Positions 5,857-63,904 are shown, numbered from the stretch's first letter. The stretch: DNA of 64,000 nucleotides from an uncultured Candidatus Saccharibacteria bacterium (GCA_964584895.1 CAZPAW010000001.1:197053-261052); one strand, 5' to 3'. Program-made: numbers and translations. Notes: generated from the letters alone by a model not told the origin.

Positions 5857-6813
5857 ATGAATAATATTTGGGATGAGATGAAGAAGCCAATATTTGTGTT
5901 GGCGCCAATGGATGATGTAACTGATACGGTTTTTCGTCAAATGATTGCTAGCTTAGCGCCGCCAGATTTGTACTTTTCAGAGTTTGTGAATGTCGACGGG
6001 TTACAGAGTGTAGGTCGAGGTAAGTTGATACATAAACTGCAGTACACAAAAAAAGAGAAGCCAATCATTGCTCAGTTATGGGGCAAAAACCCGAATAATT
6101 ATTACAAAACGACTAAACAGTTAATCGAGATGGGTTTTGATGGCGTTGATATTAATATGGGATGTCCAGTCAAGACCGTGGTTAAGGATGGCTGTTGCGT
6201 AGCACTTGTTGATAATCGCATTTTAGCTAACGAGATAATAAGCCAGACTCAAAAAGCTGCCAATGGTAAGATACCGGTAAGTGTAAAAACGCGTATTGGT
6301 AATAGAACTGTTGATATGAGCTGGATAGAGTTTTTGTTATCACATAATCTAGATGCGCTAACTGTTCATGGTCGAACCGCCAAGCAGATGTCCAAGGTGC
6401 CGGCAGACTGGGACATAATAGGGCAGGCGAGGGAAATGCGCGATCGACTCTCTCCTGCTACAAAAATTATCGGTAACGGCGATGTTATGTCGCGATCGCA
6501 TGGATTAGAGTTAGCAAAAAAACACAAGCTGGATGGAATTATGATTGGTCGAGGTATCTTTCATGATCCGTTTGTCTTTGCTAATTCGTTGTCCAGCGAA
6601 TCACCTTGGCAAGGATATTCAAAATCTCAAAAGATTGAGCTTTATAAAAAACACGTCCAACTATTTGCTAAAACTTGGAAAAAGGGCGAACGACGATCGA
6701 TTGGCCTTAACAAGTTTTGTAAGATATATATTAATGGCTTTGATGGTGCCAAAGAATTGCGGGTTGATTTAATGGACGCGAAAAATACTGAAGAGTTACT
6801 AGAGAAGCTCTAG
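5857..6813 (+). CDS. dus: tRNA-dihydrouridine synthase
   Basis: 'LAPMDDVTDTVFRQM', 'DINMGCPVKTV' (catalytic Cys), 'VSVKTRIG'. TIM-barrel Dus family. Confidence 0.85.
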   Translation: MNNIWDEMKKPIFVLAPMDDVTDTVFRQMIASLAPPDLYFSEFVNVDGLQSVGRGKLIHKLQYTKKEKPIIAQLWGKNPNNYYKTTKQLIEMGFDGVDINMGCPVKTVVKDGCCVALVDNRILANEIISQTQKAANGKIPVSVKTRIGNRTVDMSWIEFLLSHNLDALTVHGRTAKQMSKVPADWDIIGQAREMRDRLSPATKIIGNGDVMSRSHGLELAKKHKLDGIMIGRGIFHDPFVFANSLSSESPWQGYSKSQKIELYKKHVQLFAKTWKKGERRSIGLNKFCKIYINGFDGAKELRVDLMDAKNTEELLEKL

Positions 6814-6831
6814 TTCTGTACAATAGCAGGT

Positions 6832-7320
6832 ATGAGCCAACGGTTAAGACAAGTTAGCTTATTATTCTTGCGAGATGATAAATATATTTGGTTGGCCATG
6901 AAAAAACGTGGTTTTGGAGAAGGGTATTGGAACGGGGTTGGTGGTAAGCCCGATTCGAATGAGCCGATCGAAAACACTGCAGTTCGTGAATGTGAAGAAG
7001 AAATAGAAGTAACCCCGCTTAATCTCGAGCACGTCGCGACGCTTGATTTTTACTTTCCACCAGAAAAATCGGCGCTTGGTTGGGATCAGCAAGTTGTGGT
7101 GTATTTTTCGGATAAATGGGATGGCGAACCAAAAGAGACAGAAGAAATGGCGCCAAAACGATTCTCTATTGAAGATCTTCCATATGAGAATATGTGGGAT
7201 GACGATAAGCTTTGGTTACCAAAAGTAATTGACGGTAAGTTCGTCAGAGCCAAATTTCACTTTGATAATTCAGGTAAAATTGAAAATTACAAAATAATAA
7301 GCGAAAAGCCAAGACAATAA
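6832..7320 (+). CDS. NUDIX hydrolase (MutT-like)
   Basis: Nudix box 'GGKPDSNEPIENTAVRECEEEIEV'. Confidence 0.8.
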   Translation: MSQRLRQVSLLFLRDDKYIWLAMKKRGFGEGYWNGVGGKPDSNEPIENTAVRECEEEIEVTPLNLEHVATLDFYFPPEKSALGWDQQVVVYFSDKWDGEPKETEEMAPKRFSIEDLPYENMWDDDKLWLPKVIDGKFVRAKFHFDNSGKIENYKIISEKPRQ

Positions 7321-7697: not shown

Positions 7698-7838
7698 AGT
7701 GAGGTGTGGTTCTGGAATGTGCGATAGATATTGATAACAAATGAGCTTGTGATATTGGCACAAAATTGCGATTAATTGTTTTACCACGAGCATTTTTATA
7801 GTATACTTCGGTTAATAATGTATATAAGGGGTAATATA

Positions 7839-9208
7839 ATGCTGAAAAAACTTAAACTACTGGTAATTGCTTCTATTTTGGCGGTGCCGCTAATTATATC
7901 CCCAATGCAAGCTTCTGCTGCTACAACTGTCGCAATCACATCGCCGACTACTGGTGAGGAAATAACGGGAACGAGTTTTACGGTAACTGGCACGGCAACC
8001 GCTGACAGGCTGATCACGGTATCGGTCAACGGTGACGAAGTTGGGACGACAACCTCTGACGGCTCAGGTGATTGGAGCTTAGAAGTAACCGACCAAGACG
8101 CTGGTGCAAAGACAATTACGGCTGTTGCTAGTGCCCACTACGCATACGTCACCAATGGTGGAGATGCAACTATCTCTGTTTTTGACATAAATACTGACCA
8201 GAAAGTCGGCAGCAACATCAGTAGTGGCGTCAATCAATCGAATCTTGTTGTACGCCCTGATGGCACGCAGATGGTTTCAGCCGGTGGTTTTGGTAGTACC
8301 GCACTTAGGGTTTGGGATTTGTCAGACCCCGCGGTCCCAGTCATATTCGATAGCATAGTCGCCCCTTTGGCGCACAACATGGGGTTAGCATACACGCCTG
8401 ATGGCACCGAGTTCTGGGCTGTTTCGACAAATTTTGGGGACTCACTACCATTCGCTCTTACGATGCAGACAACCCAGCGACGACAGCAGACATAACTGGC
8501 TATTCAGGTGCGGCGGGAATTGTTATTGCTTTCAATGAAGCAGGCGATAAAGCATACGTTTCGGACTGTGGCGATAGCAAGGTTCACGTCATTGATGTAG
8601 CTACAAAAGCCGAAACTAGTACTATAAATGGTGTTGGTTGTGGCGGCCTAGTAGTTGGGCCAAACGATGTGGCATTCTTGCTCGATAGTACTAACGATAG
8701 GCTTAAGCCAATAAACTTAGCTGCAGAAACAGCAGGCGCCTATATTGCGGTTGGTGATGCTCCGGGCCCAATATTTTTTAATTCTGATGGCAGCCGAGCA
8801 TATGTATCTAATACAAATAGTAACAATATTAGTGTAATTAACACCAACACAGATACGGTTGTAGATACAATTGCATTAACTGGCGGACCGTTGTCGGGTG
8901 TCTTTAACCCAGAATTTTCCAAGGTTTATATTGCAAGAAGTACTGCCGACCAAATAGTTGTTGCGGATGGAGATACGTTAGCTGAATTGTCTACTATTGC
9001 TGCAGGGGATTCCCCGACCGGTGTAAGACTAGGACCTGTCGAGTCTGCGACAGCGTCAGTTGATTTTACGCTTGCAACAGCTACTGGCACGTCATCAGAC
9101 GAGATCTTGGCTGATACTGGACAGAATACCTACATATTCTTGGCTCTTGCAAGCATGCTGTTAATTAGTCCAGCCGTTTACTTGAGAAAACGATACTCGC
9201 AAAAATAA
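7839..9208 (+). pseudogene. sortase-substrate surface protein with YVTN beta-propeller repeats, interrupted by a frameshift near 8440-8460 (frame 3 to frame 2)
   Basis: Signal peptide starts at 7839 (AAGGGG RBS). YVTN repeats continue across the break: frame 2 is open from 8402 and reads '...KAYVSDCGDSKVHVIDVATK...'. A TTTTGGGGA homopolymer sits at the switch. C-terminus is 'LADTG' + TM + 'RKRYSQK'. Confidence 0.55.
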
Positions 9209-9289
9209 TTATCTACAGTTGTTGGTTTAGCAACGTAGATTGCCAGTTAGTAGCCGGCAAGAATAAATCAGGTTTTTAGGGCATATTAA

Positions 9290-10330: not shown

Positions 10331-10427
10331 TTATCTAAATGACATAGATTAGTCATGCTGTACCTACTATTGTCATAAGCATAATTAGTGTATAATGACT
10401 CCGAATGAGGAAGAAGGAAAGAGAAAA

Positions 10428-11471
10428 ATGAAAAAATATTTATTTGGTTGGTTTAGCTTATTATTGATTGGTTTTAGTATTCTAATGCCAACAATAGCTA
10501 GCGCCGCGTCCGCAGTTGAAACCATTAGTCCAACAGCGTGGCAGCCGGCTAGCGGAGGCTTTCTTACTTTTGCTCAGGCCGGTACGTCACTTCCAAATGT
10601 CACCATAGCTTCTCGAGACACTCCGGGTACTATTATTAATCCAGGACTTGATAGTCCTGAGCCAGCTGGTGGATCGGGCAATGAATTATCAATGATAACT
10701 ATTCCGTCCGTTCTTACCACCTGTTCAAGCGATACGCCGGTTGATGTAACTTTTAGTAGCTACACACGCGAATTACAAAATGCTCAACCTGGAAACGATG
10801 AATACACAATCGTGAGTGGATTAATAGATTTGAGTGGGCCGACAATCGTTATTGATAGTTATAATCAGGATTCACTTGATACTGACGGAATGTACAGCGC
10901 ATCAGGCAGTGGACAGACTATCAGTACCACAGTCGGTAATCTTGACAACATTGTATCTTTTGTAAACTTTGAGGCTGCTACATTCTCAGGTGGAAGCCAC
11001 TATCAGGGTACTGCAGTATTAGGTTTACCAACGATTACACTTAGCTACGATAACGCTACTTGCCCATTGCCACCAACTGTTACCAGTGCTAGTGTCGCAA
11101 GGACAATAGTATCCCAGGATACTGCTTCTGGGGATGTTGTTGTTTCAGGTTCTAGCTATGGTGCTTCTGACGCCAACGAGGATACACTAACCTATAGCAT
11201 AAGTGATGGCAATGACGAAGGTTATTTCGCAATCAATTCTGATAGTGGAGATATTTCTACCACTAGAGCAAATATCCCTGTAGGAACGTACACAATGACT
11301 GTTTTGATCGATGATGGTAATGGTGGTACAGTTGAAGTGACGGTTACGATTACCGTCACAGAATCTGGCGAAGCGTTGGCCGATACTGGAGATAATACAT
11401 ATGTTTACTTGGCGATGGTTGGTGGGCTGTTGCTGGGATCCGTGGCCGTCGCTAAGAAATACTATTCTTAA
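10428..11471 (+). CDS. cadherin-like domain surface protein with LADTG sortase sorting signal
   Basis: Signal peptide. 'TYSISDGNDEGYFAINSDSGDISTTRANIPVGTYTMTVLIDDGNGG' is a cadherin-like repeat. C-terminal 'LADTGDNTYVYLAMVGGLLLGSVAVAKKYYS'. Start chosen at the Met after a GGAAGAAGGAAAGAG RBS. Confidence 0.7.
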   Translation: MKKYLFGWFSLLLIGFSILMPTIASAASAVETISPTAWQPASGGFLTFAQAGTSLPNVTIASRDTPGTIINPGLDSPEPAGGSGNELSMITIPSVLTTCSSDTPVDVTFSSYTRELQNAQPGNDEYTIVSGLIDLSGPTIVIDSYNQDSLDTDGMYSASGSGQTISTTVGNLDNIVSFVNFEAATFSGGSHYQGTAVLGLPTITLSYDNATCPLPPTVTSASVARTIVSQDTASGDVVVSGSSYGASDANEDTLTYSISDGNDEGYFAINSDSGDISTTRANIPVGTYTMTVLIDDGNGGTVEVTVTITVTESGEALADTGDNTYVYLAMVGGLLLGSVAVAKKYYS

Positions 11472-11594
11472 TAACGAACGTAAATAAAGTCATTTTCAAG
11501 AACTTGCGGAAATAAAATATTGTAAAATTTGTGTTTAAACATAAGTTAGTTATTTTTTTGGTAAACTGATAGAGGTTAATTTGTGTGAAAGTTA

Positions 11595-14537: not shown

Positions 14538-14608
14538 TAATCAAAAAAATATGCAAATTTTACTTCTTGAGAATAAGTACTTATGGTAATATTAACCTAA
14601 GGAAAACT

Positions 14609-17203: not shown

Positions 17204-17262
17204 CGTATACTTCACAGCCCCTATTATTATTGCTAGAATATAGATAAGAGAGGACAAAAATA

Positions 17263-17775
17263 ATGGATGATTTTAAACGTGTTGATGTAACTACAAAACC
17301 TAAGGTTCCGAGTCCCACAACCGAGAAGAAAGTAAAAAAGCCTGGGAAAAAGCGTCGTCTGCCGAAAGCAAGCACGATTATCATTACGGTACTATTATTT
17401 GCCCTAGCTGGTGGCGGATATTATTTTTACAGTAAATATAGCGAAACAAAACAAGAGGTAGAAAAACTGTCTACTGTTCAAGGCCAACAGGAACTTAACA
17501 AATCCCAGACGGAGCAACTGCTAAGTGAAATGCGTAGTATCATAGTCCTACCTGCTGGGGAGGACCCCGTTGTGGCTACAATTACTGACATAAATCAGCT
17601 CAAGAAAAACGAATTCTACAAGGACGCACAAGATGGAGACCGGGTCATCGTCTTTGCTACCGCCAAAAAGGCATATATTTACAGGCCTAGCACAAGAACC
17701 ATAGTAAATGTAGGCGCTTTTCAGCTAGATCAACAAAGCCAAAAACAACCCAGCCAAGACAATACCACTAATTAG
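17263..17775 (+). CDS. small membrane-anchored hypothetical protein (basic N-terminus, one TM, extracellular tail)
   Basis: 170-aa ORF with AGGAC-type RBS. 'KKVKKPGKKRRLPK' followed by a TM. Sits between two giant surface-protein genes. Confidence 0.5.
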   Translation: MDDFKRVDVTTKPKVPSPTTEKKVKKPGKKRRLPKASTIIITVLLFALAGGGYYFYSKYSETKQEVEKLSTVQGQQELNKSQTEQLLSEMRSIIVLPAGEDPVVATITDINQLKKNEFYKDAQDGDRVIVFATAKKAYIYRPSTRTIVNVGAFQLDQQSQKQPSQDNTTN

Positions 17776-17834
17776 AAAGCCTTTTCTGGCTACTTTCAAG
17801 TTTTGACGTAAGCGTTTCTATAGTATAATTAAAC

Positions 17835-20800
17835 ATGAATCAGAGGGTTATGATAAAGACATTGTCAAAACATAAAAAATATTTGTTTTTCGGCATAATA
17901 ATGTTGGTTGTTTTTGCCGTGCCAATTACAAGGGTAAATGCTGCTGCAACCATTACTGTAAATTCTACAGCCGATGACCAAAATAATGATGGAGAATGTA
18001 CCCTAAGGGAAGCCATAGTTGCATCAAATACAGACACAGCTTCAGGTGCTGCAGTCGGTGAATGTACTGCTGGTTCTGGCGCCGACACAATAGAATTTGA
18101 TATCTCAGGGACTGGCTTGAAGACGATCCATATATCCTCCGGGATGCCGACTATCACTCGAACTGTTACGATTGATGGCTATACTCAGACTGACGCTGTT
18201 GTTAATAATGCTGACTTCCCTGATGCGATGAATGGTACTTTAACTGTCGAGATTGATGCCGCCGGAGAATCTGGCATATATGGCTTTGATATTAATGGCA
18301 GCCAGGCTGATGGGACTGTGATAAAAGGACTGATCGTTAATGATATCCCGTACGAAACATTCTATTTGACTGACGTTGATAACGTATCTTTGGAGGGCAA
18401 CTATATCGGTACGAGTTCAACCGGTACTGTGGCTGATGGTGGTAGCTCACACGGTGTTCGAATTGGCGGCAGTTCTACCGGCAATATGATTGGTGGTGCC
18501 ACGGCCGCAAAACGAAATGTCATATCAGGCAACGGGAACACAGGTGTATTATTTTATGGATCTGCGCTAACAACGGGTAATTTTGTGCAAGGTAATTTCA
18601 TAGGCGTTGGGGCAGATGGAACAACAAGAATCGGTAATTCTCAGCAAGGCGTAGCCTCGTCAGAGGGTCCAACCGGTAACATCATCGGTGGTGATGGAGT
18701 TGGTGAGGGGAACGTAATTTCTGGTAACGGTGGGATAGGTGTTTACTTGTCGGGTACGGGTGGTGCTAATACAGTGCAAGGTAATCATATTGGGACAAAC
18801 GCCGCAGGTTCGGCCGGTGTCTATAATGGTCAGGGCGGAATTGTTGTGTCAAACGCAGATAGTAATACCATTGGTGGTTCAATAGTTGGTGCGCGTAATG
18901 TTATATCTGGAAATTCCGCCCACGGCATTTCGATTATCGATGATTCTGATAATAACGATATATCTGGGAACTATGTTGGTGTTGGCAGTGATGGATCTAC
19001 CGCAATGCCTAACGGAGTTCACGGATTACTCATTGAAGGCGGTTCTGGAAGCAACACGATTGGCGGGACTTCATCTGGTGAACGTAATATTATATCTGGC
19101 AATAGTGAAGCTGGGGTCTTTATATCGGGTCCGACTGTAAATTCAAATATTGTACAGGGTAATTATATCGGTACAGACGATACTGGTGCTGTAGACGTTG
19201 GTAATGGATCATACGGGCTAGTATTGGACAATTCGCCATCTAATACTGTTGGCGGTACAACAGGAGTAACTGTTGGTGGTGATTGTACGGGTTCTTGTAA
19301 CGTAATATCTGGGAATGGCGATGATGCTATATGGCTATATGGCGATAGCGCAGATAATAATGTAATAAAAGGCAATCACATTGGCACAAACGTAGCTGGA
19401 ACGGGAGACTTAGGTAATGGCGGTAGAGGTGTCAATATCACATTTAGTGCTGATGGAACCTTAGTCGGAGGCACAACCGCAAGCGACGCTAATCTAATCC
19501 GATTTAACGATGTCAGGGGTGTTTCGATACCGAATTCTGGCTCGATCAATAATGCGATTATCGGTAACTCTCTATATCAAAATGCTATATCAAATATTGA
19601 TCTTTCTGAGGATGGTGTGACAGCAAATGATGCTAATGATGCTGACAACGGACCAAATGACCTACTTAACTACCCAGAGTGGGGGCTATTTGATGACGAT
19701 AGTGGCGACACCGAAGTAACATATGATCTAGATGTTCCGGCTGGCGATTACCGGATAGAAACATTTAGTGATAATGGAAAAACTTTAGTTGATTCACAAA
19801 ATATTACGCACACTGGCTCAGGAGCAGAAAGTTTTTCCAACACTATTACGGGCAATAATTATTCAAACCTTCGAATGACTGCAACAGAGATTGATGGTGG
19901 ATTGTCCAGTGGTTTTGGATCAACTAGCGAATATAGCGAAGCATACTCTGATGGTACAGAAATAATTACCGTAAACTCTACAGCTGACGATAGTAATGAT
20001 GATGGCGAATGTACCTTGCGCGAAGCCATAACTGCAGCTAATGATAATACTGAATCTGGGATAAGTGACGGCGAGTGTATTGCTGGTGCTGCGACTGATA
20101 CCATAGAATTTGATATTGCAGGTGCTGGACCGCACACGATTCAGCCAGGCGCAGCCTTGCCATCGATAACAGCAGACGGTACGACCATTAATGGCTATAG
20201 TGAAACAGGAGCAGTAGAGAACTCTGGTGACTATAGTGCATGTTTTGTAGGTACGATCATGATAGAAATCGATGGTCAAAATGCCGGTAGCGTATCTGGG
20301 CTGACAATTTCTGCTGAGAATGTGACAATCAGAGGTCTGGCAATCAACAGATTTACATATAGTGGAGTTTATATAGGGTCAGCGAGTGGTACGGTAGTTG
20401 CAGGGAATATTCTTGGACTTGATGACGCAGGGTTGGTTGACCACGGTAATGGCGATGCTGGTGTTGACATAAGAAGTACTGGGGATACTTTGATTGGTGG
20501 TACGACTGCTGCAGATCGGAACCTAATCTCCGGTAATGAAGGGTTTGGCGGGATAAGTTCTTATGCAGATACAGGCACGATAACAATTAGTGGGAATTGT
20601 ATCGGCACTGACGCAACTGGTGATACTGCAATCCCGAATAACCATAGCGGGATTAATTTATATCAAGCCGAGGCGAATATGGTTATCGGCGGCGACACCA
20701 CTCACGAGCGCAATATTATATCTGGTAACGACGAAAACGGTATCAGCATTTCAGAGAGTAATGTGGGTGATATAAAAGGCAACTATATCGGAGTGGATGC

Positions 20801-22934
20801 GGATGGTGAGGCTGATTTGGGCAATGGCATGAGCGGAATATCGGCTGACGCTACTTCCAGCGTGTCCTATATTGGTGGGCTAACTAGCGGAGAGCGTAAT
20901 ATTATATCTGGTAACGACAGCGATGGTATATATTTGGCCGATGGAACTGGCGATACCAGAATCCGCGGTAACTACATTGGCGTTGATGCTACAGGGGCAG
21001 TAGACCTAGGTAATACAGATGATGGAATAATTGCTGGCTCGACCGACATTATTATCGGTGGAACAGCAAGTGGAGCACGAAACGTTGTATCCGGGAATGG
21101 TGCAGAGGGTATAGAATTATCTTCTACCGCAACAACTGCTTTGGTCCAAGGTAATTATATTGGACTTAGCGCTAGTGGCAGTAGCGGTATCGGGAATACT
21201 AATATTGGTCTTAGCACAATGGGTATCAATACGATAGTTGGCGGTACGGCAAGCGGGGCAGAAAATGTCGTCTCAGATAACGGTGCTGGTGGAATTTCGG
21301 TCGATGGCGACGATACGACAGTAATCGGAAACCTAGTCGGAACAAGCGCAGATGGCTTGAGTGAAATTGGCAATACTAGTGTTGGTATTAAATCTGGTGG
21401 TGACAATGTAATTATTGGCGGAGATTCAGCCACCGAGCGTAATGTAGTAGCCGGCACAATAGTAGGTGGAAATTATGCTGGATCAGGTATCGTTCTGCTC
21501 AGTTTTGGATCAGGCGGAAGTGGTGGGGTTGTTAAGGGTAATTACGTTGGGACAAATATTAACGGTACAGTTGGTGGCGGGTTTGGCAACGGCGGATTCG
21601 GAATATTCGCAATCGGGGACTATTCAAATGGAGTTATCGGCGGTACAGCTAGTGGCGAGGGTAACAAAGTTGTGAGTAGCGGAATGAACGGAATAGGCGC
21701 GAACGGGTTCGCTGGCTTTGGTCTGTACACGAATAATATATCAATCTTAGGTAACCAAGTATATCAAAGTACCTCGACCGGCATTAGATTAATGGCAGAT
21801 ACTAATGGTGATTTTCAACCTGATACTCCGATTCCGTTCCCCAATGATGCGGGCGATGGTGATGTTGGGCCTAATGATTATCTTAACTTCCCAGTTCTTA
21901 ATAGTTCTTCGGCTTCTGCGGGCTCGTTGGATGTTAATTTTGATCTAGATATTCCTAATACTAATACTGGAGTAACCGGCTATAGACTAGAGTTTTTTGC
22001 TAACGACACAGGTGATGCGTCCGGTAATGGCGAGGGGCAGATATATCTTGGTTCGGCAAATGTGTCAGGAGATGTATCAAGCCATTCGGAGACAATAACT
22101 TTAGATCCTGGTGTCATCACCACCGGTGACTACGATATTTCGGCAACTGTCACTGAAATCGATGGTAGTGCTGATGGGTTTGGATCGACTAGCGAGTTTA
22201 GTGCATTCCTAGATAACCAAGAGATTATTCAGCCACTAGATAATGACGATGACGGAGTCAATGATGCTGTTGAAGATGCTGGCCCTAATGGTGGCGATGG
22301 TAATGACGATGGAACGCAGGATAGTGAACAAGCTAGCGTGGCAACAATTCTTGATGCCGAAAGCGACGATTACGTTACACTAGCACTTGATTCGGCTGGC
22401 GTGTGCGATCAGATAGATGATTTTGCATCAAAGCTTGAAAGCGAGCTATCTGAATCTGACCCTGACTTTATCTATCCGCTAACACTAGTAGAATTTACTA
22501 TTCCGTGTGAAGACAGCGTAGATGGAACATTATTCTGGCACGGCGAGGAAGAGTTCACTACTCAAATCTATCGTAAATTTGGCCCGACCACACCTGGCGA
22601 TGTTTCTTCGACAAGTTGGTACACGTCTGAACAATTTATAACGAGCACTGTAGATATTGACGGGAATGCTACAGCAACAGCTTCATTTACGTTGACCGAT
22701 GGTGAAGCAGGTGACGATACAGGCAATGATAATGTAATTGTAGATGCCAATGGTCCAGGCCTAGAAGTAGAAACAACTGACTCTGTAGTAGATAGTATCT
22801 CTAGCGCTGTATCAGACGCACTGTCGGCTACTGGAATGAACCAATACGGCATTTATGCAATAGCCGGCGCGTTAATTATCGGTGGATCGGTGTTTATTGT
22901 AAAACGAAAGTATCAAAGCAGAACTTCAAAGTAA
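17835..22934 (+). CDS. 1699-aa giant surface protein: two CTLREA-type N-terminal modules plus long parallel beta-helix (PbH1/NosD-like) repeat arrays, with C-terminal LSATG sorting signal
   Basis: Signal peptide. 'DGECTLREAIVASN' at residue ~50 and again at ~720. Dozens of 'N.ISGN...G(I/V)' beta-helix repeats. C-terminal 'LSATGMNQYGIYAIAGALIIGGSVFIVKRKYQSR'. Confidence 0.75.
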   Translation: MNQRVMIKTLSKHKKYLFFGIIMLVVFAVPITRVNAAATITVNSTADDQNNDGECTLREAIVASNTDTASGAAVGECTAGSGADTIEFDISGTGLKTIHISSGMPTITRTVTIDGYTQTDAVVNNADFPDAMNGTLTVEIDAAGESGIYGFDINGSQADGTVIKGLIVNDIPYETFYLTDVDNVSLEGNYIGTSSTGTVADGGSSHGVRIGGSSTGNMIGGATAAKRNVISGNGNTGVLFYGSALTTGNFVQGNFIGVGADGTTRIGNSQQGVASSEGPTGNIIGGDGVGEGNVISGNGGIGVYLSGTGGANTVQGNHIGTNAAGSAGVYNGQGGIVVSNADSNTIGGSIVGARNVISGNSAHGISIIDDSDNNDISGNYVGVGSDGSTAMPNGVHGLLIEGGSGSNTIGGTSSGERNIISGNSEAGVFISGPTVNSNIVQGNYIGTDDTGAVDVGNGSYGLVLDNSPSNTVGGTTGVTVGGDCTGSCNVISGNGDDAIWLYGDSADNNVIKGNHIGTNVAGTGDLGNGGRGVNITFSADGTLVGGTTASDANLIRFNDVRGVSIPNSGSINNAIIGNSLYQNAISNIDLSEDGVTANDANDADNGPNDLLNYPEWGLFDDDSGDTEVTYDLDVPAGDYRIETFSDNGKTLVDSQNITHTGSGAESFSNTITGNNYSNLRMTATEIDGGLSSGFGSTSEYSEAYSDGTEIITVNSTADDSNDDGECTLREAITAANDNTESGISDGECIAGAATDTIEFDIAGAGPHTIQPGAALPSITADGTTINGYSETGAVENSGDYSACFVGTIMIEIDGQNAGSVSGLTISAENVTIRGLAINRFTYSGVYIGSASGTVVAGNILGLDDAGLVDHGNGDAGVDIRSTGDTLIGGTTAADRNLISGNEGFGGISSYADTGTITISGNCIGTDATGDTAIPNNHSGINLYQAEANMVIGGDTTHERNIISGNDENGISISESNVGDIKGNYIGVDADGEADLGNGMSGISADATSSVSYIGGLTSGERNIISGNDSDGIYLADGTGDTRIRGNYIGVDATGAVDLGNTDDGIIAGSTDIIIGGTASGARNVVSGNGAEGIELSSTATTALVQGNYIGLSASGSSGIGNTNIGLSTMGINTIVGGTASGAENVVSDNGAGGISVDGDDTTVIGNLVGTSADGLSEIGNTSVGIKSGGDNVIIGGDSATERNVVAGTIVGGNYAGSGIVLLSFGSGGSGGVVKGNYVGTNINGTVGGGFGNGGFGIFAIGDYSNGVIGGTASGEGNKVVSSGMNGIGANGFAGFGLYTNNISILGNQVYQSTSTGIRLMADTNGDFQPDTPIPFPNDAGDGDVGPNDYLNFPVLNSSSASAGSLDVNFDLDIPNTNTGVTGYRLEFFANDTGDASGNGEGQIYLGSANVSGDVSSHSETITLDPGVITTGDYDISATVTEIDGSADGFGSTSEFSAFLDNQEIIQPLDNDDDGVNDAVEDAGPNGGDGNDDGTQDSEQASVATILDAESDDYVTLALDSAGVCDQIDDFASKLESELSESDPDFIYPLTLVEFTIPCEDSVDGTLFWHGEEEFTTQIYRKFGPTTPGDVSSTSWYTSEQFITSTVDIDGNATATASFTLTDGEAGDDTGNDNVIVDANGPGLEVETTDSVVDSISSAVSDALSATGMNQYGIYAIAGALIIGGSVFIVKRKYQSRTSK

Positions 22935-23009
22935 GCGGTATTAGTAGTTGTAATATTAGTTAAACTGACAGATAATATACATAAGCATTTTATAAGGGGA
23001 GTTAGAATT

Positions 23010-25469
23010 GTGGGAGTAGGTTTATCCCAGATTGTAGATAATCAAAATAATAAATTATTTGCGATATCGTTATTACTCGGCGTCAGTATAATCTCGGTGT
23101 TAATCTTTAGCGGACAAGTAGTTAGGGCTGCTGCAGATACTTGTACCTGGACGGGCTCTGGAGCAGATACGAATATTAGTACAGCTGGAAATTGGAGTGG
23201 GTGCGATAATGGCAATGTCCCTCAGGACGGGGACACACTAGTATTCCCATCTGGCCCCACTAACAAAGCAGTTACGGTTGACTCGGATATGGGATTTAAT
23301 GGTATTACATTTAATGGTAGTGGTTACACTGTTGCATCTGTGGCGTTTGAATCTCTCGGTGTCTATACCAGCCTGACTATTAGTGGCAACAACAACATAT
23401 TTAGTGGATATGTTCGGTTATATCCAACAACCACAGCCACCATAAATCACAGTGGTACTGGGACAAGTTTTTCTCATTATATTGTCATACAACCTTTAGC
23501 TGATAATACGGATGTTGTATTGAACACTGTAACAGACCTAGCTGTTCCAATGATTTCACAGACTGCGGTAGGGGCTGGAAGTTCAGTCGACACAGTCGCA
23601 AAATCAGGTGCTGGGACGCTAGATATCACTGGGACTGCGATTTCAGGTGTTATTACTAGCGGTGGTATTCACATTGAAGAAGGTCGCTGGCAATGTGATT
23701 CAACAAATTGCCTTGGCAATAGTGCAAACGAAATTATCCTAGATGAAGGTGGCGATGAAGACGGTGCTGAACTAAAGATTAATCATGGCGGAACAGTCAG
23801 TAACCCTATTACTTCTGCAGCGGTCACGGGAGAAAACGGCTCTGTAATTATTTCTGCAAGCGCGACACTAAATGGCGATATTACTGTCACTGATAGTTTG
23901 AATATGTTTGTGACTGGCTCTACAAGTGCCAATATTGATTCTGATATAGCGGTCGCTGATGGCAAAAATCTTGTAAGTTATGGCTCGGAAGGTTATGCGA
24001 CAAACGCTTACGATTACGGCGGTATCATATCTGGCGATGGGGGTTTGATTATTGATAATGCCCATGTGACGTTGAGCGGAATGTCTAATACTTATACTGG
24101 TTCGACAGAGCTAAATAACGCCGCATTGCTTACCGTGACAAATAATAATTCACAGGGCGCACAAACATCAGGAACTGTCGTCAATAATGGCACAACACTA
24201 GAATATGACGCAGGGAGTAGCATCGGTTTTGGAGAGCCAATTACTGTTGAGGGTACTGGTGTGGGTGGTAGCTATCCGGGAGCGTTAGTTAAAACTGGTC
24301 AAAACATGCAGATTGAAGGTGGTATTACCTTGACTGATGATACAACGTTCCATAATGCGACAAGCGAGTTATTTGAAATCACCTCTGTAATTACCGGTAA
24401 TTATAACTTAACATTAACTAACGTCGAAGACGATGGTGGATTCAATATGCAACCAGGTGCGGAAAATTACTTTGGTAACCTAATTGCAACCGGTACAGAA
24501 CTCACGATAGCAGGTTCTGGCAATACAGCGATTCCAAATAATCTAACCATCAATGCTGTAGACGGCAAGTCTTCTTATGTACTATTAAACAGCGACAATG
24601 TCATTGCAGATGATTCGGTAATTACGCTTAATAACGATAGTACCGAAATCGCCAAACTGATAAGCAGTGGAGTAGCGGATTCAGTAGGCACAATTATAGG
24701 CGACGGCACCATTTCGATGCTGGATTCTGATTCACGCTTTAACATTGGATACGGCGACACTGACGGCACTTTTGAAGGTGTTGTAGAAGGCTATACTAAT
24801 TCTCAATTTCAGATCACTGATGGTATATGGACCTTTTCTGGTGATAATACGGACGTTGGTAATGGGTTCTCTAGTTACTATGTTAACGGCGGGAAATTTG
24901 TTGCTGATGCTATTAATACAAGTCTTGGATTCTCCCCGTTTAGCATTAGCTCGGGTGTGCTGGGCGGAACCGATGTAATAGGGCAAGTCAGCGTATATGG
25001 TGGTACAATCGCCCCTGGAAACAGCCCAGGTTGCTTAAACCCTGCCGGTGACGTGGCCTTTACAGATGAGCTTTCTATTTTGAATGTCGAGCTTAACGGC
25101 ACTACTGTCTGCAGTGAATATGACAAGCTTGCAGCCAGTGGAATTGTCTACCTTAATGATGCGACGCTAAATGTAGACTTAGGTTTTGTTCCATCAGCCG
25201 GCGACACATTTACAATTGTAGAGGGTTCTTCAATTGTTGGTACATTTTCTGGTCTTGCTGATGACGATACATTTACTGTTGGCAGCAGAACAATGAAGAT
25301 TAACTACAATGCTACTTCGGTTGTTGTAACTGATGTCACAGCAGATTCAGCAAGCTCTTCAACAACAGATTCGTTAGCAAATACAGGTGTTAGCCAACTG
25401 TTCTTTTTTGGTTTAGTAATTGTATTATTTGGTGGGTCAGCTCTGGTACTCAAGAAGAAAAATCTGTAA
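23010..25469 (+). CDS. autotransporter-passenger-like surface protein (PATR repeats, pertactin-like beta-helix) with LANTG sortase signal in place of a beta-barrel
   Basis: GTG start after a GGGGAG RBS. 'CTWTGSGADTNISTAGNWSG...VPQDGDTLVF' (PATR). 'GGTIAPGNSPGCLN' SPG motif. C-terminal 'LANTGVSQLFFFGLVIVLFGGSALVLKKKNL'. Confidence 0.65.
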   Translation: MGVGLSQIVDNQNNKLFAISLLLGVSIISVLIFSGQVVRAAADTCTWTGSGADTNISTAGNWSGCDNGNVPQDGDTLVFPSGPTNKAVTVDSDMGFNGITFNGSGYTVASVAFESLGVYTSLTISGNNNIFSGYVRLYPTTTATINHSGTGTSFSHYIVIQPLADNTDVVLNTVTDLAVPMISQTAVGAGSSVDTVAKSGAGTLDITGTAISGVITSGGIHIEEGRWQCDSTNCLGNSANEIILDEGGDEDGAELKINHGGTVSNPITSAAVTGENGSVIISASATLNGDITVTDSLNMFVTGSTSANIDSDIAVADGKNLVSYGSEGYATNAYDYGGIISGDGGLIIDNAHVTLSGMSNTYTGSTELNNAALLTVTNNNSQGAQTSGTVVNNGTTLEYDAGSSIGFGEPITVEGTGVGGSYPGALVKTGQNMQIEGGITLTDDTTFHNATSELFEITSVITGNYNLTLTNVEDDGGFNMQPGAENYFGNLIATGTELTIAGSGNTAIPNNLTINAVDGKSSYVLLNSDNVIADDSVITLNNDSTEIAKLISSGVADSVGTIIGDGTISMLDSDSRFNIGYGDTDGTFEGVVEGYTNSQFQITDGIWTFSGDNTDVGNGFSSYYVNGGKFVADAINTSLGFSPFSISSGVLGGTDVIGQVSVYGGTIAPGNSPGCLNPAGDVAFTDELSILNVELNGTTVCSEYDKLAASGIVYLNDATLNVDLGFVPSAGDTFTIVEGSSIVGTFSGLADDDTFTVGSRTMKINYNATSVVVTDVTADSASSSTTDSLANTGVSQLFFFGLVIVLFGGSALVLKKKNL

Positions 25470-25548
25470 ATAACTAAGTTAGTTTGTTATAATCACATCT
25501 GTTACGTAGTAATTTTTTTAGTTACTCGTTGACGAGGGGATGTAGCTC

Positions 25549-25678: not shown

Positions 25679-25754
25679 GGGGCTGTAGCTCAGGGGTTAG
25701 AGCAGTCGGCTCATAACCGATTGGTCGCAGGTTCAAATCCTGCCAGCCCCACCA
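25679..25754 (+). tRNA. tRNA with CAT anticodon, elongator-type (Met, or Ile2 if lysidine-modified); CCA encoded
   Basis: Cloverleaf read directly: acceptor GGGGCTG/CAGCCCC, D-arm GCTC-AGGGGTTA-GAGC, anticodon loop CTCATAA, T-arm GCAGG-TTCAAAT-CCTGC, then A-CCA. C11:G24 is the elongator type. Confidence 0.8.
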
Positions 25755-51627: not shown

Positions 51628-53226
51628 ATGAATCGGTTTTTGAAACGCGCAAGCAAGAGCATGTCAATTGGCGGTGCGGCAACTCTACTTATTTCTATCT
51701 CATTACTTGGTCAAGTATTGGGTTTTTTAAAAGTAAAGTTGATCAATGCAAACTTTCCTGCTACCGGTCTTCAGAGTACCGATGCATATTTTGCTGCATT
51801 TAAAATTCCGGATTTTTTCTTTCTTACGATTGCTGCTGGTGCTCTCGGGGTTGCTTTTATCCCATATCTATCAGACAAGTTAGAGAAAGGTGATAAAAAA
51901 GGTGCCTGGCAAATATCTTCGAGCTTACTTAACTTATTAATGATTTTCATGTTTGTTGTAGGTCTGGTTATCTTTATTTTTGCCGAGCAGTTAATAGAAC
52001 TATTGGTTGCGCCTGGGTTAACGCCAGAACAGCTAAGTAATGCTGTGATGATTATGCGTCTAGTTTGTCTGAATCCATTAATGTTTACGATATCTGGAAT
52101 ACTTATGAGTGTTCAGCAAACTATTGGACGATTTTTCTTTTTTGCTATCGCACCATTATTTTATAGTCTTGCCATCATTGCTAGTACGCTAATATTTCGC
52201 AATAATGTAGGAATTGTAGGCCTTGGAATCGGTGCGGCAGTCGGGGCTGCGCTACAGTTGATTATCGCACTTTTGGGAATGTGGGGTACAAAATTCCGAT
52301 ACGAAACTATGATTAGATGGGAGAATGCGGCTTTCCGTGGAGTGCTTAGGCAATTACCGGCACGATCAGTTGACCAGGGGATAGATGCGATTAACTCGAT
52401 TGCAGAAACGAACTTCGCTAATAGACTCGGTCCGGGCAATGTTACTTATTATGAGAATGCTTACGTCATACACACAACCCCAATATTATTACTTGGAAGC
52501 GCCATATCAACAGCAGCATATCCAAAATTAACCGAAAGATTGTCACAGGGCAGGCCGGATCTATTTAGAAAAGATTTCATTGACGTGTTACGAGCTATGA
52601 TATGGATTTTGATGCCGGTCGTTATTGTGGCATTTTTTGCTCGAGGATATTTGGCGAGAATTATTTACGCTCGACCCGATGATGCAAACCAGATTGCATT
52701 AATTCTTGGCTTTTTGTGTGTAGCGATTTTTTTCAGAACTATCTATCAAATAATCTCGAGATATTTTTACGCACATAAAGATTCCATGACACCGTTACTC
52801 GTTTCAATCTTTATTATTGCTCTCAACGTTTTCTTGGCCTGGAAACTCTCCCAACGAGATTCGTACAGCGTGGCCGGTCTAGCGATAGCACAAAGCATTG
52901 CTGCTACTACAGAGGTATTAATACTAATATTATTAATGATGATCAGAGATAAAAAAATATTTACCTTGAAATTTTTAGGCGATTTAACAAGGATAATGTC
53001 TGTTTCTGGTTTTGCAGTTGTAGCTGCATACATTGCGATTTCGTTCTTGCCTCTCAACGCTACAGACGTAGGATTTCTTACGCTTGGGACAAAGCTAGTT
53101 GCGATTAGCCTTGTTACGTTTGGCGTATATATATTCATGTCATCTTTATTTAGTATCGAAGAATCTAAAGCTGTCACTGATAGAATAAAAAAGATTGTTT
53201 TCAAGCCAGTAAAAATTGATTGGTGA
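51628..53226 (+). CDS. murJ: lipid II flippase MurJ (MviN family)
   Basis: 532 aa, 14 TM. N-terminal 'GAATLLISISLLGQVLGFLKVKLINANF...DAYFAAFKIPDFFF' is the MurJ signature. Confidence 0.85.
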   Translation: MNRFLKRASKSMSIGGAATLLISISLLGQVLGFLKVKLINANFPATGLQSTDAYFAAFKIPDFFFLTIAAGALGVAFIPYLSDKLEKGDKKGAWQISSSLLNLLMIFMFVVGLVIFIFAEQLIELLVAPGLTPEQLSNAVMIMRLVCLNPLMFTISGILMSVQQTIGRFFFFAIAPLFYSLAIIASTLIFRNNVGIVGLGIGAAVGAALQLIIALLGMWGTKFRYETMIRWENAAFRGVLRQLPARSVDQGIDAINSIAETNFANRLGPGNVTYYENAYVIHTTPILLLGSAISTAAYPKLTERLSQGRPDLFRKDFIDVLRAMIWILMPVVIVAFFARGYLARIIYARPDDANQIALILGFLCVAIFFRTIYQIISRYFYAHKDSMTPLLVSIFIIALNVFLAWKLSQRDSYSVAGLAIAQSIAATTEVLILILLMMIRDKKIFTLKFLGDLTRIMSVSGFAVVAAYIAISFLPLNATDVGFLTLGTKLVAISLVTFGVYIFMSSLFSIEESKAVTDRIKKIVFKPVKIDW

Positions 53227-59308: not shown

Positions 59309-59902
59309 ATGAAAACATTAAATAACACATCAAAATTATCAAAAATATGGGCATGGGTATTAACTGTTGGCGGGTTGTCTGGCGTGATTGCTATGACAAT
59401 GCAGGCTAGTGAGAGAATTACAATGCTCAAGAATCCGACTGTTCCACTCAGTTGTAATTTAAATCCAATCATTGATTGCGGGACAGTGCTTGATAATCGA
59501 TTGGCTGCACTTTTTGGTTTTCCTAATGCATTCATCGGTATGATTGTTTTTGCCGGACTAGCGCTTAGTGGATTATTTTTGATAACAGGAACTAAGCCAA
59601 ACAAAGCGTATCGCAATATTGTGATGGCGCTCAGTACAATTCTATTAGGTTTTAGTATCTGGTTTTATAGCGTAAGTCTCTACGTTATTGCTAAAATTTG
59701 TATTTTTTGTTTAGTAGGATGGTTCGTCAGCATCCCAATTTTTGTTTACTCGTTTGCACAATGGGCAAGCGGGTCTAATAATAAATCGCTTCAAAAAGCA
59801 GGTGAGTTTTTCCAAAAAAATCACATCAATATAATTGTTGTTTCGTACGTGATAATGGCGTTAATGTACGTATTAAAATTTCAAGAATATTATTTTGGAT
59901 AA
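59309..59902 (+). CDS. vitamin K epoxide reductase (VKOR)-family membrane protein
   Basis: Loop cysteines 'CNLNPIIDCG' and TM4 active site 'CIFCL' (CxxC), 4-5 TM. Adjacent to dnaJ. Confidence 0.6.
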   Translation: MKTLNNTSKLSKIWAWVLTVGGLSGVIAMTMQASERITMLKNPTVPLSCNLNPIIDCGTVLDNRLAALFGFPNAFIGMIVFAGLALSGLFLITGTKPNKAYRNIVMALSTILLGFSIWFYSVSLYVIAKICIFCLVGWFVSIPIFVYSFAQWASGSNNKSLQKAGEFFQKNHINIIVVSYVIMALMYVLKFQEYYFG

Positions 59903-61047: not shown

Positions 61048-61713
61048 ATGGCAAAAAATAAAGTTCAGTATGTTCATGGTGAAAAACTAGTAAAAAAGAG
61101 CAAATGGCGACGTAGAGTAGCGTTAATAATTGCCCTTGTATTATTTATATCAGGAATATATCTACTTTTATTGACATTGTCACCAAAAGCCCCTGTGCCG
61201 TCAAAGATTGACTTAAATACCAAGGACGATACTGAAGACCATCGAGACAGAATACAAATTGAGAAAATTAATTTAGAGGTTCCATTTTTTGCAGGTACAG
61301 ATGCCAGTACTTTAGAAAAAGGAGTATGGTGGCGGTTTCCTGATAGAGGTAGCCCTACGACCGGCGGTAACTTTATTTTGAGTGCTCATAGATTTTTCTT
61401 AGGCTATACGCCTCAAGGTACGCGCGAGAGATCTCCGTTTTATAAATTAAATGAAGTTCAGCCAGGCGATAAGATTAAAGTGTATTATAAAGATAAGTGG
61501 TACGAATACGAAGTAACTAAAAACTATGCTGTAGACCGAACGGCTGTGGAAATAGAGAATAAAACCGAAGACGCAAAAATGACACTGTATACTTGTTCGC
61601 TTGCTGGTGAGGCAGACGGCAGGGCGGTTATTGATGCCAAGCCGTTATTTGAAACATCTGGCTCTCTAGAAGAAAATGGCAGTGGCTCACCACTCCTACG
61701 AGTGGTCAATTAA
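61048..61713 (+). CDS. sortase (class E-like transpeptidase)
   Basis: N-terminal TM. 'ILSAHRFF' (catalytic His), 'TLYTCS' (TLxTC Cys), 'GRAVID' (Arg). Confidence 0.8.
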   Translation: MAKNKVQYVHGEKLVKKSKWRRRVALIIALVLFISGIYLLLLTLSPKAPVPSKIDLNTKDDTEDHRDRIQIEKINLEVPFFAGTDASTLEKGVWWRFPDRGSPTTGGNFILSAHRFFLGYTPQGTRERSPFYKLNEVQPGDKIKVYYKDKWYEYEVTKNYAVDRTAVEIENKTEDAKMTLYTCSLAGEADGRAVIDAKPLFETSGSLEENGSGSPLLRVVN

Positions 61714-62352
61714 ATCAGTATATGCAACCACTTGGTTGCCACCGGCTTTTTTAGCGGCGTAAAGTGCTAGGTCTCCCTGCTCATACAATTCTTCGAACTG
61801 AGTGTGTTGTTCGAATTGTACAACACCTACACTTGTAGAGATATCAACACCCCTAGAGTCAACCTCTTGAATCCCGTTAATAAGCTCACATATGACTTTT
61901 GCACGTTCTATTGCGACTTCTTCTGTTGCACCATCAAGCATAATAACTAATTCGTCGCCCCCAAATCTTGCAACTGCGTCGTCATCGCGCACAGAACTAA
62001 GGATTGCAACGATACCTTTCAGTAGCTTGTCTCCAATAGGATGACCATGCGTATCGTTTACGGGTTTGAATCTATCGATGTCAAAAAAGAGCATACTGCC
62101 ACTAGGTGTTTCCCTTTTATTGTATCTCTCTTCGAGGCCTTCACGATTAAGTGCACTAGTGAGCTTGTCGCGATAAAGCCTCTGTTGCAAATCGTTTGTT
62201 TCCCCACGGAGTAAATAGTTAGAGAAAGCAGTAATTGCATGATTGTAGCTTGTGTCCGCCATGGCTCGATCTATGGGGTTATCAAATTCGGACCGTTTTA
62301 ATGGCCCGCTATAAAACTCTTCTTGTTGTCTCGAAGATGGAGTAAATGACAT
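61696..62352 (-). CDS. GGDEF-domain protein with non-canonical GGDEL motif
   Basis: 'FFDIDRFKPVNDTHGHPIGDKLL' and 'RFGGDELVIML'. The F to L change may affect activity. Confidence 0.7.
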   Translation of the reverse strand: MSFTPSSRQQEEFYSGPLKRSEFDNPIDRAMADTSYNHAITAFSNYLLRGETNDLQQRLYRDKLTSALNREGLEERYNKRETPSGSMLFFDIDRFKPVNDTHGHPIGDKLLKGIVAILSSVRDDDAVARFGGDELVIMLDGATEEVAIERAKVICELINGIQEVDSRGVDISTSVGVVQFEQHTQFEELYEQGDLALYAAKKAGGNQVVAYTDLIDHS

Positions 62353-62596: not shown

Positions 62597-63904
62597 ATGA
62601 TGTCACCACCTTTACCAGAAGTTAAAGTTAATGTTGGCTTAACCCCTGATCAGGACGGCTCCGATACTATTACGTACGGCAAGTTACGCAGTGAAATTGA
62701 TAGACAAGCTGAATATCTCGATGGTCGTTGGGATTTGCTTTTCAACTCCCCAGAAGGCGATATAGAAGAGTCTTTACAAGCGCGACGTCTTGCCGAAACA
62801 TATTTATTGCAAACTGCAATTCGAGGACTACAATCATGGGATAATCCCGAAAAAGAACGATTGTGGCAAGAACGATTTACTCAGGCAAGCATAGAGCTAT
62901 ATGGTGAGCCAGACGAAAAGATTGTACGAGAGCTTGCAGCTAATGAGCGTAATTTGTTATCAGAGTTTTTCGATGACCCAAGAGTTGATCAGGATATTCT
63001 ACGTGAAGTAATTGATGTATATGATTATGTCGCTGGACACAGCGAAGGAGAAGCCATACCAGAACTTAGCCATGAAGCTTTTGAAGTTGTTGATGCATTC
63101 TTTTCGAGTGAAACTAACTCTAAAGTATTAGAGATGACTGATAGTTTAGAGGACAGACCATATGCACCTAAAGAACTGGTCGGGATATTTAGAGAAGCTA
63201 TTAACATACTTAAATCTAATGATTCTAATTGGGATGTTTGGAAAGTTGAACTGGTCGATCAATCAGGCTTATCTATCAACCCAGAGGAGAAAATTGTTCG
63301 TATTGGAGAACGAAGAAGTAGTGCATACCCTGCTGAAGTAAAAAAACTTTTAGGCCATGAACTATTAATTCATGCTCTTAGAGCGACTAATGCCTTGAGG
63401 CAGTCTGACGAACTTCTTCACGAAACCTTACCTGAATATGGCGTATTTGAAGAGGGTCTTGGTATTGTTGCTGAGGTCGTTATATCTGGAGAAAGATCTG
63501 AAAAAGCTATAAATCGATATGTTGATATAGCGCTGGCGCTCGGGACAAATCATTATTTGTTAAGTAGGAAAGAACTATTCGAGTTTGCCTATAATCGTCA
63601 AATATTAGCAAATCAGATTAAGGGAAAACCTATTGATTATAAAGCAATAGAAAAAGAGACATGGACACACATCGATAGAATTTTTCGGGGAGGCGATGGC
63701 GATGAAGATTCAAAAGCAGTATATACAATGTATAGCTATTACTACGCAGGATACGTAAAAGCGGTCAATTATTTAAACGAGGCATTAGCTAGTGGTGTAA
63801 GTGCCGACAAATTAATTGAATATACCATGCAGGCAAAATTCGACCCTACAAACCCTACCCATAAAAAACATATTAGAGAAAACGGATTAGTCCCTAGTCT
63901 GTAA
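62597..63904 (+). CDS. DUF1704 / QEGLA-motif family protein (predicted HExxH zinc-dependent carboxypeptidase-like)
   Basis: 'GHELLIHALR' (HExxH) and 'FEEGLGIVAEV' (QEGLA-like motif). ~435 aa, the typical family size. Confidence 0.5.
   Translation: MMSPPLPEVKVNVGLTPDQDGSDTITYGKLRSEIDRQAEYLDGRWDLLFNSPEGDIEESLQARRLAETYLLQTAIRGLQSWDNPEKERLWQERFTQASIELYGEPDEKIVRELAANERNLLSEFFDDPRVDQDILREVIDVYDYVAGHSEGEAIPELSHEAFEVVDAFFSSETNSKVLEMTDSLEDRPYAPKELVGIFREAINILKSNDSNWDVWKVELVDQSGLSINPEEKIVRIGERRSSAYPAEVKKLLGHELLIHALRATNALRQSDELLHETLPEYGVFEEGLGIVAEVVISGERSEKAINRYVDIALALGTNHYLLSRKELFEFAYNRQILANQIKGKPIDYKAIEKETWTHIDRIFRGGDGDEDSKAVYTMYSYYYAGYVKAVNYLNEALASGVSADKLIEYTMQAKFDPTNPTHKKHIRENGLVPSL

Follow-up and report, generated by a model that had tools for sequence, protein, structure and literature searches.

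An apparently unclassified Saccharibacteria sortase and four candidate substrates with LAxTG-type sorting signals

A 64,000-nucleotide stretch of DNA from an uncultured bacterium, referred to here as the window, encodes a predicted sortase at positions 61048..61713 and, at a distance, proteins that end in L[AS]xTG. The organism belongs to Candidatus Saccharibacteria (TM7), within the Candidate Phyla Radiation (CPR) or Patescibacteria, and the G+C content of the window is low (0.36-0.45). The arrangement raises the questions of which proteins the sortase serves and to which sortase class it belongs; an initial annotation had answered both by proposing a class-E-like sortase paired with the distant L[AS]xTG proteins. 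We hold with good confidence a reading that keeps the pairing and drops the class, namely that a Saccharibacteria sortase clade fitting none of the existing classes anchors four LAxTG-type proteins, with Ala at P3, without the determinants of class E. The sortase and the four candidate substrates are as follows (TM, transmembrane segment; aa, amino acids).

61048..61713, + strand: sortase, 221 aa, with ILSAHRFF (H114), MTLYTCS (C183) and DGRAVID (R192)
7839..9208, + strand: substrate 1, signal peptide, Ig-like domain, YVTN β-propeller repeats, LADTG-TM-RKRYSQK; frameshifted
10428..11471, + strand: substrate 2, signal peptide, cadherin/Big_9-like Ig domain, LADTG-TM-KKYYS
17835..22934, + strand: substrate 3, 1699 aa, signal peptide, two CSLREA N-terminal domains, parallel β-helix repeats, LSATG-TM-KRKYQSRTSK
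23010..25469, + strand: substrate 4, 819 aa, signal peptide, Cys-containing N-terminal cap (DTCTWTG...GCDNG), predicted long right-handed β-helix, LANTG-TM-KKKNL

By its sequence, the open reading frame (ORF) at 61048..61713 encodes a member of the sortase superfamily, a cysteine transpeptidase anchored in the membrane. It matches PF04203 (Pfam Sortase) with 78.5 bits (cutoff 26.6) and the generic NCBIfam sortase model TIGR01076 with 47.2 bits (cutoff 39.35), and an alignment of 56 sortase homologues shows no variation at H114, C183 (in TLYTC) or R192; in the window sortase the spacing is 69 residues from His to Cys and 9 from Cys to Arg. A basic cytoplasmic N-terminus is followed by a membrane helix (~19-44), a linker (~53-68) whose sequence IDLNTxDDxxDxRxR is conserved across the family, and the catalytic domain (68-199), which carries a family-specific insertion of ~9 aa (HRFFLGYTPQGTRERSPFY) directly after the catalytic His, at residues 117-127. 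An AlphaFold2 model (predicted local distance difference test score, pLDDT, 84.9) shows the N-terminal helix at 19-44 and then a β-barrel domain, in keeping with the eight-stranded barrel of sortases, and the best 50 Foldseek matches of this model to the PDB were all sortases, each at a probability of 1.0. The earlier identification of a sortase with catalytic His, Cys and Arg is thus borne out by the PF04203 match, the invariant residues and the predicted fold.

The four substrates emerged from a scan of all 91 window ORFs of at least 80 aa for C-terminal LxxTG with a hydrophobic stretch and a basic tail behind it. Exactly four have the motif, 26-33 residues from the C-terminus, together with the hydrophobic stretch and a K/R tail, in agreement with the initial annotation. 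A motif-blind scan for a C-terminal TM and basic tail returned eight window ORFs, among which only these four carry L[AS]xTG; the remaining four resemble ordinary membrane proteins. Since L[AS]xTG occurs only three times in the ~17.7k interior residues of the window ORFs, four occurrences at one fixed C-terminal position are far beyond chance (~0.2 expected at the C-terminus, with the hydrophobic stretch and basic tail not yet required). By inspection, the full sorting-signal layout of pentapeptide, hydrophobic segment, basic tail and N-terminal signal peptide is present in all four proteins; the signal peptides are clear in substrates 2, 3 and 4, and in substrate 1 after its two parts are joined across a frameshift.

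Substrate 1 calls for a correction of the gene model. The ORF at 8669..9208, previously listed as a substrate in its own right, does end in the LADTG tail, but it has no signal peptide and is only the 3´ part of a broken gene spanning 7839..9208. The frame breaks at ~8441-8447, in a run of TTTTGGGG, such that the gene reads as ORFs 7776..8495 and 8669..9208, and an intact 458-aa orthologue (L078 7134..8510, LADTG; loci with L numbers are introduced below) aligns over both halves. The frameshift could be that of a real pseudogene or a homopolymer assembly error; the public gene call contains the same 179-aa fragment. The YVTN repeats of substrate 1 score 55.9 bits with TIGR02276. For substrate 2, the start at 10428 (MKKYLF...) is more plausible than the longest-ORF start at 10395, and the protein is 70% identical to L078 5939..7018 (LADTG). 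Substrate 3 contains two copies of the CSLREA domain (TIGR04214, 65.2 bits, cutoff 25) and a choice-of-anchor-U-like region that falls below threshold (NF041766, 23.5 bits, cutoff 32).

Homologues of the window sortase detectable in a large protein collection number 301, and the few that are named are called "sortase" or "sortase A", one of them from Candidatus Saccharibacteria. A scan of one genome per species gave 104 sortase relatives, of which 80 loci (numbered with the prefix L) were kept, nearly all of them from metagenome-assembled genomes (MAGs) of Saccharibacteria, Saccharimonadales or Patescibacteria. An exhaustive profile search gave 110 representatives (50% identity clusters) at E values up to 1e-30, beyond which the scores fall off smoothly into the general sortase superfamily. 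Some Saccharibacteria MAGs carry two or three sortase paralogues; L008/L027/L062, L010/L021 and L058/L079 each come from one MAG.

In the 1.24 Mb of the window and the 80 loci, we surveyed all ORFs of 100 aa or more for xxxTG with a hydrophobic stretch and then a basic tail behind it. Forty-seven signals with Leu at P4 were found, of which 36 were LAxTG, with LSxTG and LPxTG accounting for four each, LVxTG for two and LTxTG for one. L, T and G were kept in all 47, P2 varied, and Asn stood at P2´ in 31, giving an extended consensus of [ST][TG]x[ST]-L-A-[DN]-T-G-[QED]-N with the core LA[DN]TG[QED]N. LAxTG occurred 16 times in the interior of proteins, in ~350,000 residues; calculated from the survey counts, the motif is enriched ~23-fold at its fixed C-terminal position across the 81 sequences. 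The signal is similarly frequent among the 37 full-length orthologues of substrate 4 (27-80% identity), 29 of which end in LAxTG. As judged from these sequences, a preference for Ala or Ser at P3 is a well-supported conserved property of the substrates of this sortase family.

The pairing of enzyme and substrates is supported by gene linkage in other genomes. In the window the nearest substrate lies 35.6 kb from the sortase, and in the closest relatives (L001-L006) none was found within 10 kb of the sortase either; ~20 of 63 related loci, however, have a substrate gene no more than 200 bp from their sortase. In other genomes, each of the four window substrates has orthologues within ~4.5 kb of an orthologous sortase, several adjoining it. 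Those of substrates 1 and 2 (L078 7134..8510 and 5939..7018) lie 1.5-4 kb upstream of the L078 sortase, the latter at 3 kb, homologues of substrate 3 with LAxTG flank the sortase in L070 (both neighbours), L017 (8 bp away), L013 and L023, and orthologues of substrate 4 are near the sortase in L075, L018 (25 bp away) and L076. Given that substrate orthologues lie near or beside orthologous sortases and that LAxTG is the majority signal, both the pairing and the preference for Ala at P3 are well supported, and the comparison of loci lends strong support to the view that enzymes of this family process these four proteins. The earlier proposal that the sortase pairs with distant L[AS]xTG proteins stands on the linkage in L078, L070, L017, L075, L018, L013 and L023.

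The class of the sortase was assessed by running the NCBIfam class models on the window sortase and the 56 homologues. The class E model NF033747 gave the window sortase 47.5 bits against a cutoff of 160, the class D models NF033746 and NF058671 gave 57.2 and 58.4 bits (cutoffs 165 and 140), and the models for class C, GN and F gave 42 (cutoff 160), 26 and 18 bits, respectively. None of the 56 homologues, which showed the same pattern, reached any class cutoff, nor did more distant relatives at ranks ~95-150 of the profile search. For calibration, catalytic domains taken from PDB chain sequences were run through the same models. True class E domains scored 188 (SrtE1, 5CUW), 202 (5GO5) and 141 bits (9IOK) on the class E model, and BaSrtD scored 182 and 196 bits on the class D models, whereas the class A enzyme LmSrtA scored 47.6 bits on the class E model, the same as the window sortase. 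Because cross-class scores of 50-60 bits are normal, the 58 bits of the window sortase on class D carry no class information. The leading matches of a PDB sequence search were LmSrtA, BaSrtD and CpSrtD; SrtE1 reached E = 0.0065 there and was not among the top 50 Foldseek matches, a mixture of class C, A and D enzymes.

Class E enzymes are marked by a conserved Tyr in the β3/β4 loop (Y229 of SrtE1, in G-H-Y), proposed to read the amide of the P3 Ala, and by a long β6/β7 insertion, and CpSrtD has been named as an enzyme without this Tyr (Kattke 2016, PMC5148588). In a MAFFT alignment the Tyr column is F97 in the window sortase, as in CpSrtD (GHF). Among 63 family members, position 97 is F in 33, Y in 20 and W, K, H or R in seven. 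We sought a link between Tyr or Phe at this position and LAxTG or LPxTG as the neighbouring signal and found none, both residues occurring with LAxTG; in the four LPxTG cases position 97 is K, Y, F or unknown. The β6/β7 insertion, a ~10-aa segment before TLTTC, has no counterpart in the window sortase when aligned by MAFFT with 5CUW, 5GO5 and 9IOK. Sequence identity amounts to 23-25% with class E, 26-32% with class D and 31% with class A, and a small neighbour-joining tree places the window sortase family in a clade of its own. Class D signals of the LPxTA(T/N) type were absent from the window and the 80 loci. By these sequence comparisons the window sortase lies outside every curated class (A-F, GN) and is class-E-like by signal only. 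The initial assignment to class E is thus not supported, given the score of 47 bits against a cutoff of 160, Phe in place of Tyr, the missing β6/β7 insertion and the position of SrtE1 outside the top 50; classification by model and tree puts the enzyme neither in class E nor in class A or B, which had been named as the contrary outcome, but in no class.

Could the enzyme nonetheless be a divergent but genuine class E sortase, sharing ancestry and Ala recognition with actinobacterial SrtE and perhaps acquired from hosts? Saccharibacteria live on Actinobacteria, and an aromatic residue, F or Y, is usual in the family at the class E Tyr column. The spacings of 69 residues from His to Cys and 9 from Cys to Arg equal those of SrtE1, whose catalytic His and Cys we take to be H251 and C320. 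The corresponding Arg is R329, and the LAxTG signal is likewise that of class E (Kattke 2016, PMC5148588). These likenesses are set against a class E score that is that of a class A enzyme, far below the 141-202 bits of true class E domains and below the score on class D. The Phe matches CpSrtD, and both F-type and Y-type enzymes adjoin LAxTG substrates; there is no β6/β7 insertion, SrtE1 is absent from the leading structural matches, and identity to class E is lower than to class D or class A. We therefore regard membership of class E as improbable. It is unlikely, too, that a sortase paralogue elsewhere in the genome processes the four proteins while the window sortase serves other substrates or another role. 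The distance of 35.6 kb to the nearest substrate, when many relatives have adjacent substrates, would fit such a division of labour, as would the two or three paralogues of some MAGs, including long-tailed forms within multi-substrate clusters (L012, L013). However, enzymes of the same family lie near orthologues of the same substrates (L078, L017, L018, L023, L070, L075), housekeeping sortases are commonly encoded far from their substrates, and the closest relatives L001-L006 show the same separation. That the L[AS]xTG-TM-KR tails are uncleaved membrane anchors with a chance motif is hardly credible. Cleavage is predicted from sequence, and the LPXTG anchor model TIGR01167 leaves the proteins below cutoff or undetected, both of which this explanation would accommodate; yet the ~23-fold C-terminal enrichment, the retention of L, T and G in every one of the 47 signals, the persistence of the signal through orthologues of 27-80% identity and the physical linkage to sortase genes effectively refute it, insofar as comparative sequence data can.

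Several points weigh against our own reading, that an unclassified Saccharibacteria sortase clade anchors the four proteins. TIGR01167 (cutoff 15.9) gave substrate 1 only 15.1 bits and did not report the other three at E values up to 0.1; the change from Pro to Ala probably costs the substrates this score. The placement outside all classes is relative to a reference set of six PDB catalytic domains and the NCBIfam class models, which include no separate class A model, and to an alignment that contained no class B, C or F sequences, such that the clade may conceivably be a divergent sister of class D or class E. The view was limited to a 64-kb window of a contig of at least 402 kb, other sortase paralogues may exist, and one of these could process some of the four proteins. 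Cleavage site, acceptor and specificity of the window sortase are all inferred.

With these points in mind, anchoring by the window sortase would proceed as follows. The four surface proteins, which carry N-terminal signal peptides, would be exported by Sec, and the C-terminal hydrophobic segment and K/R tail would hold them in the membrane. Cys183, with His114 and Arg192, would then cut between T and G of LA(D/N)TG or LSATG to form a thioacyl intermediate, as suggested by the family membership and the invariant residues, and the amine of lipid II would resolve the intermediate, leaving the proteins covalently attached to peptidoglycan. The enzyme would be of the single-copy, housekeeping-context type. 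Since the class E determinants are absent, the preference for Ala must rest on other residues; with Phe in the window sortase, the class E explanation, which invokes the Tyr hydroxyl, cannot apply. Candidate P3 determinants are a family-specific W[WH]R[FY]P segment at β3/β4 or the insertion after the catalytic His. It is a tentative idea, which we consider somewhat less likely than its converse, that the sortases of Saccharibacteria, and probably of the wider CPR, form a separate class that gained LAxTG[QED]N specificity independently of class E through the W[WH]R[FY]P segment, the post-His insertion or both. More speculatively, it may be no coincidence that Saccharibacteria and their actinobacterial hosts have the LAxTG code in common, which could reflect a similar lipid II acceptor, exchange of substrate genes or cross-anchoring at the interface of epibiont and host.

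Three other window genes bear on this scheme.

59309..59902, + strand: VKOR (vitamin K epoxide reductase family), PF07884; two genes upstream of the sortase
51628..53226, + strand: MurJ lipid II flippase, PF03023, 208.5 bits
26656..28230, - strand: signal peptidase I, PF10502, 100.1 bits; S26 domain at the C-terminus of a 524-aa protein

The order around the sortase is dnaK, a small ORF, VKOR, dnaJ, sortase and a convergent GGDEF gene, and it is kept in the closest relatives; this is a housekeeping-type context and not a substrate operon. In L001, L002, L004, L019 and L040, VKOR homologues of 65-83% identity precede the sortase by 1-4 kb, and the window VKOR is the probable re-oxidant of a system that forms disulfides in secreted proteins. 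Cys residues C45, C65, C229 and C234 are invariant or near-invariant in the substrate 4 orthologues. By analogy with Actinomyces, the VKOR context and these conserved Cys residues suggest that disulfide formation is coupled to surface-protein display. MurJ implies that the organism exports lipid II, the expected sortase acceptor, and signal peptidase I would cleave the signal peptides from the N-termini of the exported substrates. A class C or pilus-assembly role for the window sortase was considered and rejected, as there is no adjacent pilin-like substrate and the class C score is 42 bits against a cutoff of 160. The 3´ end of the sortase gene overlaps the GGDEF gene (61696..62352, - strand) by 18 nt (61696-61713); close sortase relatives share a conserved end at ...GSPLL* (216 aa), and the window copy extends to ...GSPLLRVVN*.

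Substrate 4, described initially as an unusual fusion of an autotransporter passenger with a sortase signal, has no Pfam match. AlphaFold2, with 32 orthologues as input, models it as a single long β-helix (pLDDT 88.3), and the nearest solved folds are a metagenomic β-helix domain and the passengers SepA, EspC, Hbp, Ssp, Hap, EspP, pertactin and Ag43, all weak matches (E values of 1e-4 to 1e-1, TM-scores of 0.16-0.26). The autotransporter repeat TIGR02601 stayed below threshold (15.6 bits, cutoff 19.85). On the strength of the predicted structure, the likeness of substrate 4 to the passenger fold appears to be real. The β-barrel translocator PF03797 was absent from substrates 3 and 4 and from all 47 substrate 4 homologues, and distant homologues carry PF12951 (PATR), one of them (P0164) together with an SLH domain. 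CSLREA and choice-of-anchor families, to which the domains of substrate 3 belong, are defined by their occurrence with many different C-terminal anchors. As β-helix modules are found with several kinds of anchor, such as the SLH domain of P0164, the combination of a passenger with a sortase signal is not exceptional; the passenger likeness of the initial description is retained as a prediction, and with no homologue bearing a β-barrel and a module indifferent to its anchor, the fusion is not remarkable.

Other endings and arrangements were noted among the relatives. The more distant substrate 4 homologues P0151, P0156 and P0159-P0161 end in [GA]xP[NDE]TG[FL] before a TM and basic tail, as does L011 11023-12537 (- strand), from a MAG labelled Nomurabacteria; this motif lacks Leu at P4 and could represent a second type of signal, used by other Patescibacteria. 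Clusters of two to four consecutive LAxTG proteins were seen in L012 (5085-10726), L013 (9902-16925) and L069 (3666-7621), their members sharing a conserved pre-signal segment, …DPVGLATTSLADTG. The clusters of L012 and L013 adjoin a long-tailed sortase paralogue of 294-315 aa with a Pro/Ser/Thr-rich C-terminus. All three clusters are possibly pilus-like or specialised sorting islands.

The window also contains further features in and around the surface-protein genes. These genes occupy an 18-kb block (~7800-25500) with a G+C content of 0.42-0.45, compared with 0.36-0.40 in the rest of the window, and the block stops just before a tRNA-Met gene (25679-25754), one of three tRNA-Met (CAT) genes in the window, at 25679, 45658 (- strand) and 47319. 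Within the block, 11595-14537 (+ strand) encodes a 980-aa LamG/Big_7/purple-acid-phosphatase-N-like surface protein whose hydrophobic end, …VLGFAFVLVIITGLLWRVFIH, has no LxxTG, and which seems to be anchored in another way than the sortase substrates next to it. Amid the same surface-protein genes, the 895-aa product of 14516-17203 (+ strand) combines collagen-like G-x-D repeats and a Peptidase_S74 domain (endosialidase intramolecular chaperone) with a TM segment in its interior and a coiled coil at its C-terminus, an architecture like that of a phage tail fibre. A 926-aa protein with a trypsin-like protease domain is encoded at 32518-35298 (+ strand), and just downstream of the sortase, 62597-63904 (+ strand) encodes a 435-aa protein with a MATCAP-like (PF08014) metallopeptidase segment, the L001 homologue of which is split into two ORFs.

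Saccharibacteria live as obligate epibionts, and it is above all their surface proteins that would be expected to recognise the host and attach to it. The LA[DN]TG[QED]N tag offers a simple rule by which to list the displayed TM7 proteome, where the standard LPXTG model fails on all four window proteins. The apparent reading of Ala at P3 without class E determinants is a natural experiment on sortase specificity, and the window sortase could give an orthogonal enzyme for sortase-mediated ligation.

Among known systems, class E (Streptomyces coelicolor SrtE1, 5CUW; Actinomyces oris SrtA) resembles the window system in having a membrane-anchored His/Cys/Arg transpeptidase with TLxTC, substrates with LAxTG and thus Ala at P3, and a housekeeping-type context with a link to oxidative folding, here through the VKOR gene near the sortase; the MdbA/VKOR system of Actinomyces is cited in PMC6744442. 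It differs in its β3/β4 Tyr and β6/β7 insertion, in place of which the window family has Phe or a variable residue and no insertion, and the window family in turn has its own ~9-aa post-His insertion, the IDLNTxDD linker, a distribution in Patescibacteria and an added conserved Asn at P2´. Class D (Bacillus anthracis SrtD, 2LN7; Clostridium perfringens SrtD, 4D70) provides the best-scoring NCBIfam class models (57-58 bits) and ranks 2 and 3 of the PDB sequence matches, behind the class A structure 5HU4, and shares a compact catalytic domain without the β6/β7 insertion and, in CpSrtD, Phe at the β3/β4 position. However, the window sortase is far below the class D cutoffs of 140 and 165, at an ordinary cross-class level, and class D enzymes recognise LPxTA or LPQTGS, not LAxTG, and are specialised (sporulation) rather than housekeeping. 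Autotransporter passengers and PATR proteins (PF12951) have a β-helix that the one predicted for substrate 4 may resemble, although substrate 4 has no PF03797 barrel, and CSLREA or choice-of-anchor proteins share the two CSLREA domains of substrate 3.

Sortases have been described before in the same organisms. A TM7 sortase with predicted sorted proteins was reported from a search for LPXTG only (Kantor 2013, PMC3812714), and a sortase family (fam000526) was found in more than half of CPR genomes together with a VKOR-linked disulfide system (Méheust 2019, PMC6744442); the window sortase presumably belongs to the same protein family as these published CPR/TM7 enzymes. Beyond general mentions of sortases in TM7/CPR, a search of a literature library found no account of an LAxTG(Q/E/D)N signal in Saccharibacteria, of the class of their sortase or of its substrate set. 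The sortase anchoring mechanism itself is ordinary and already known; what is new is its LAxTG variant in TM7.

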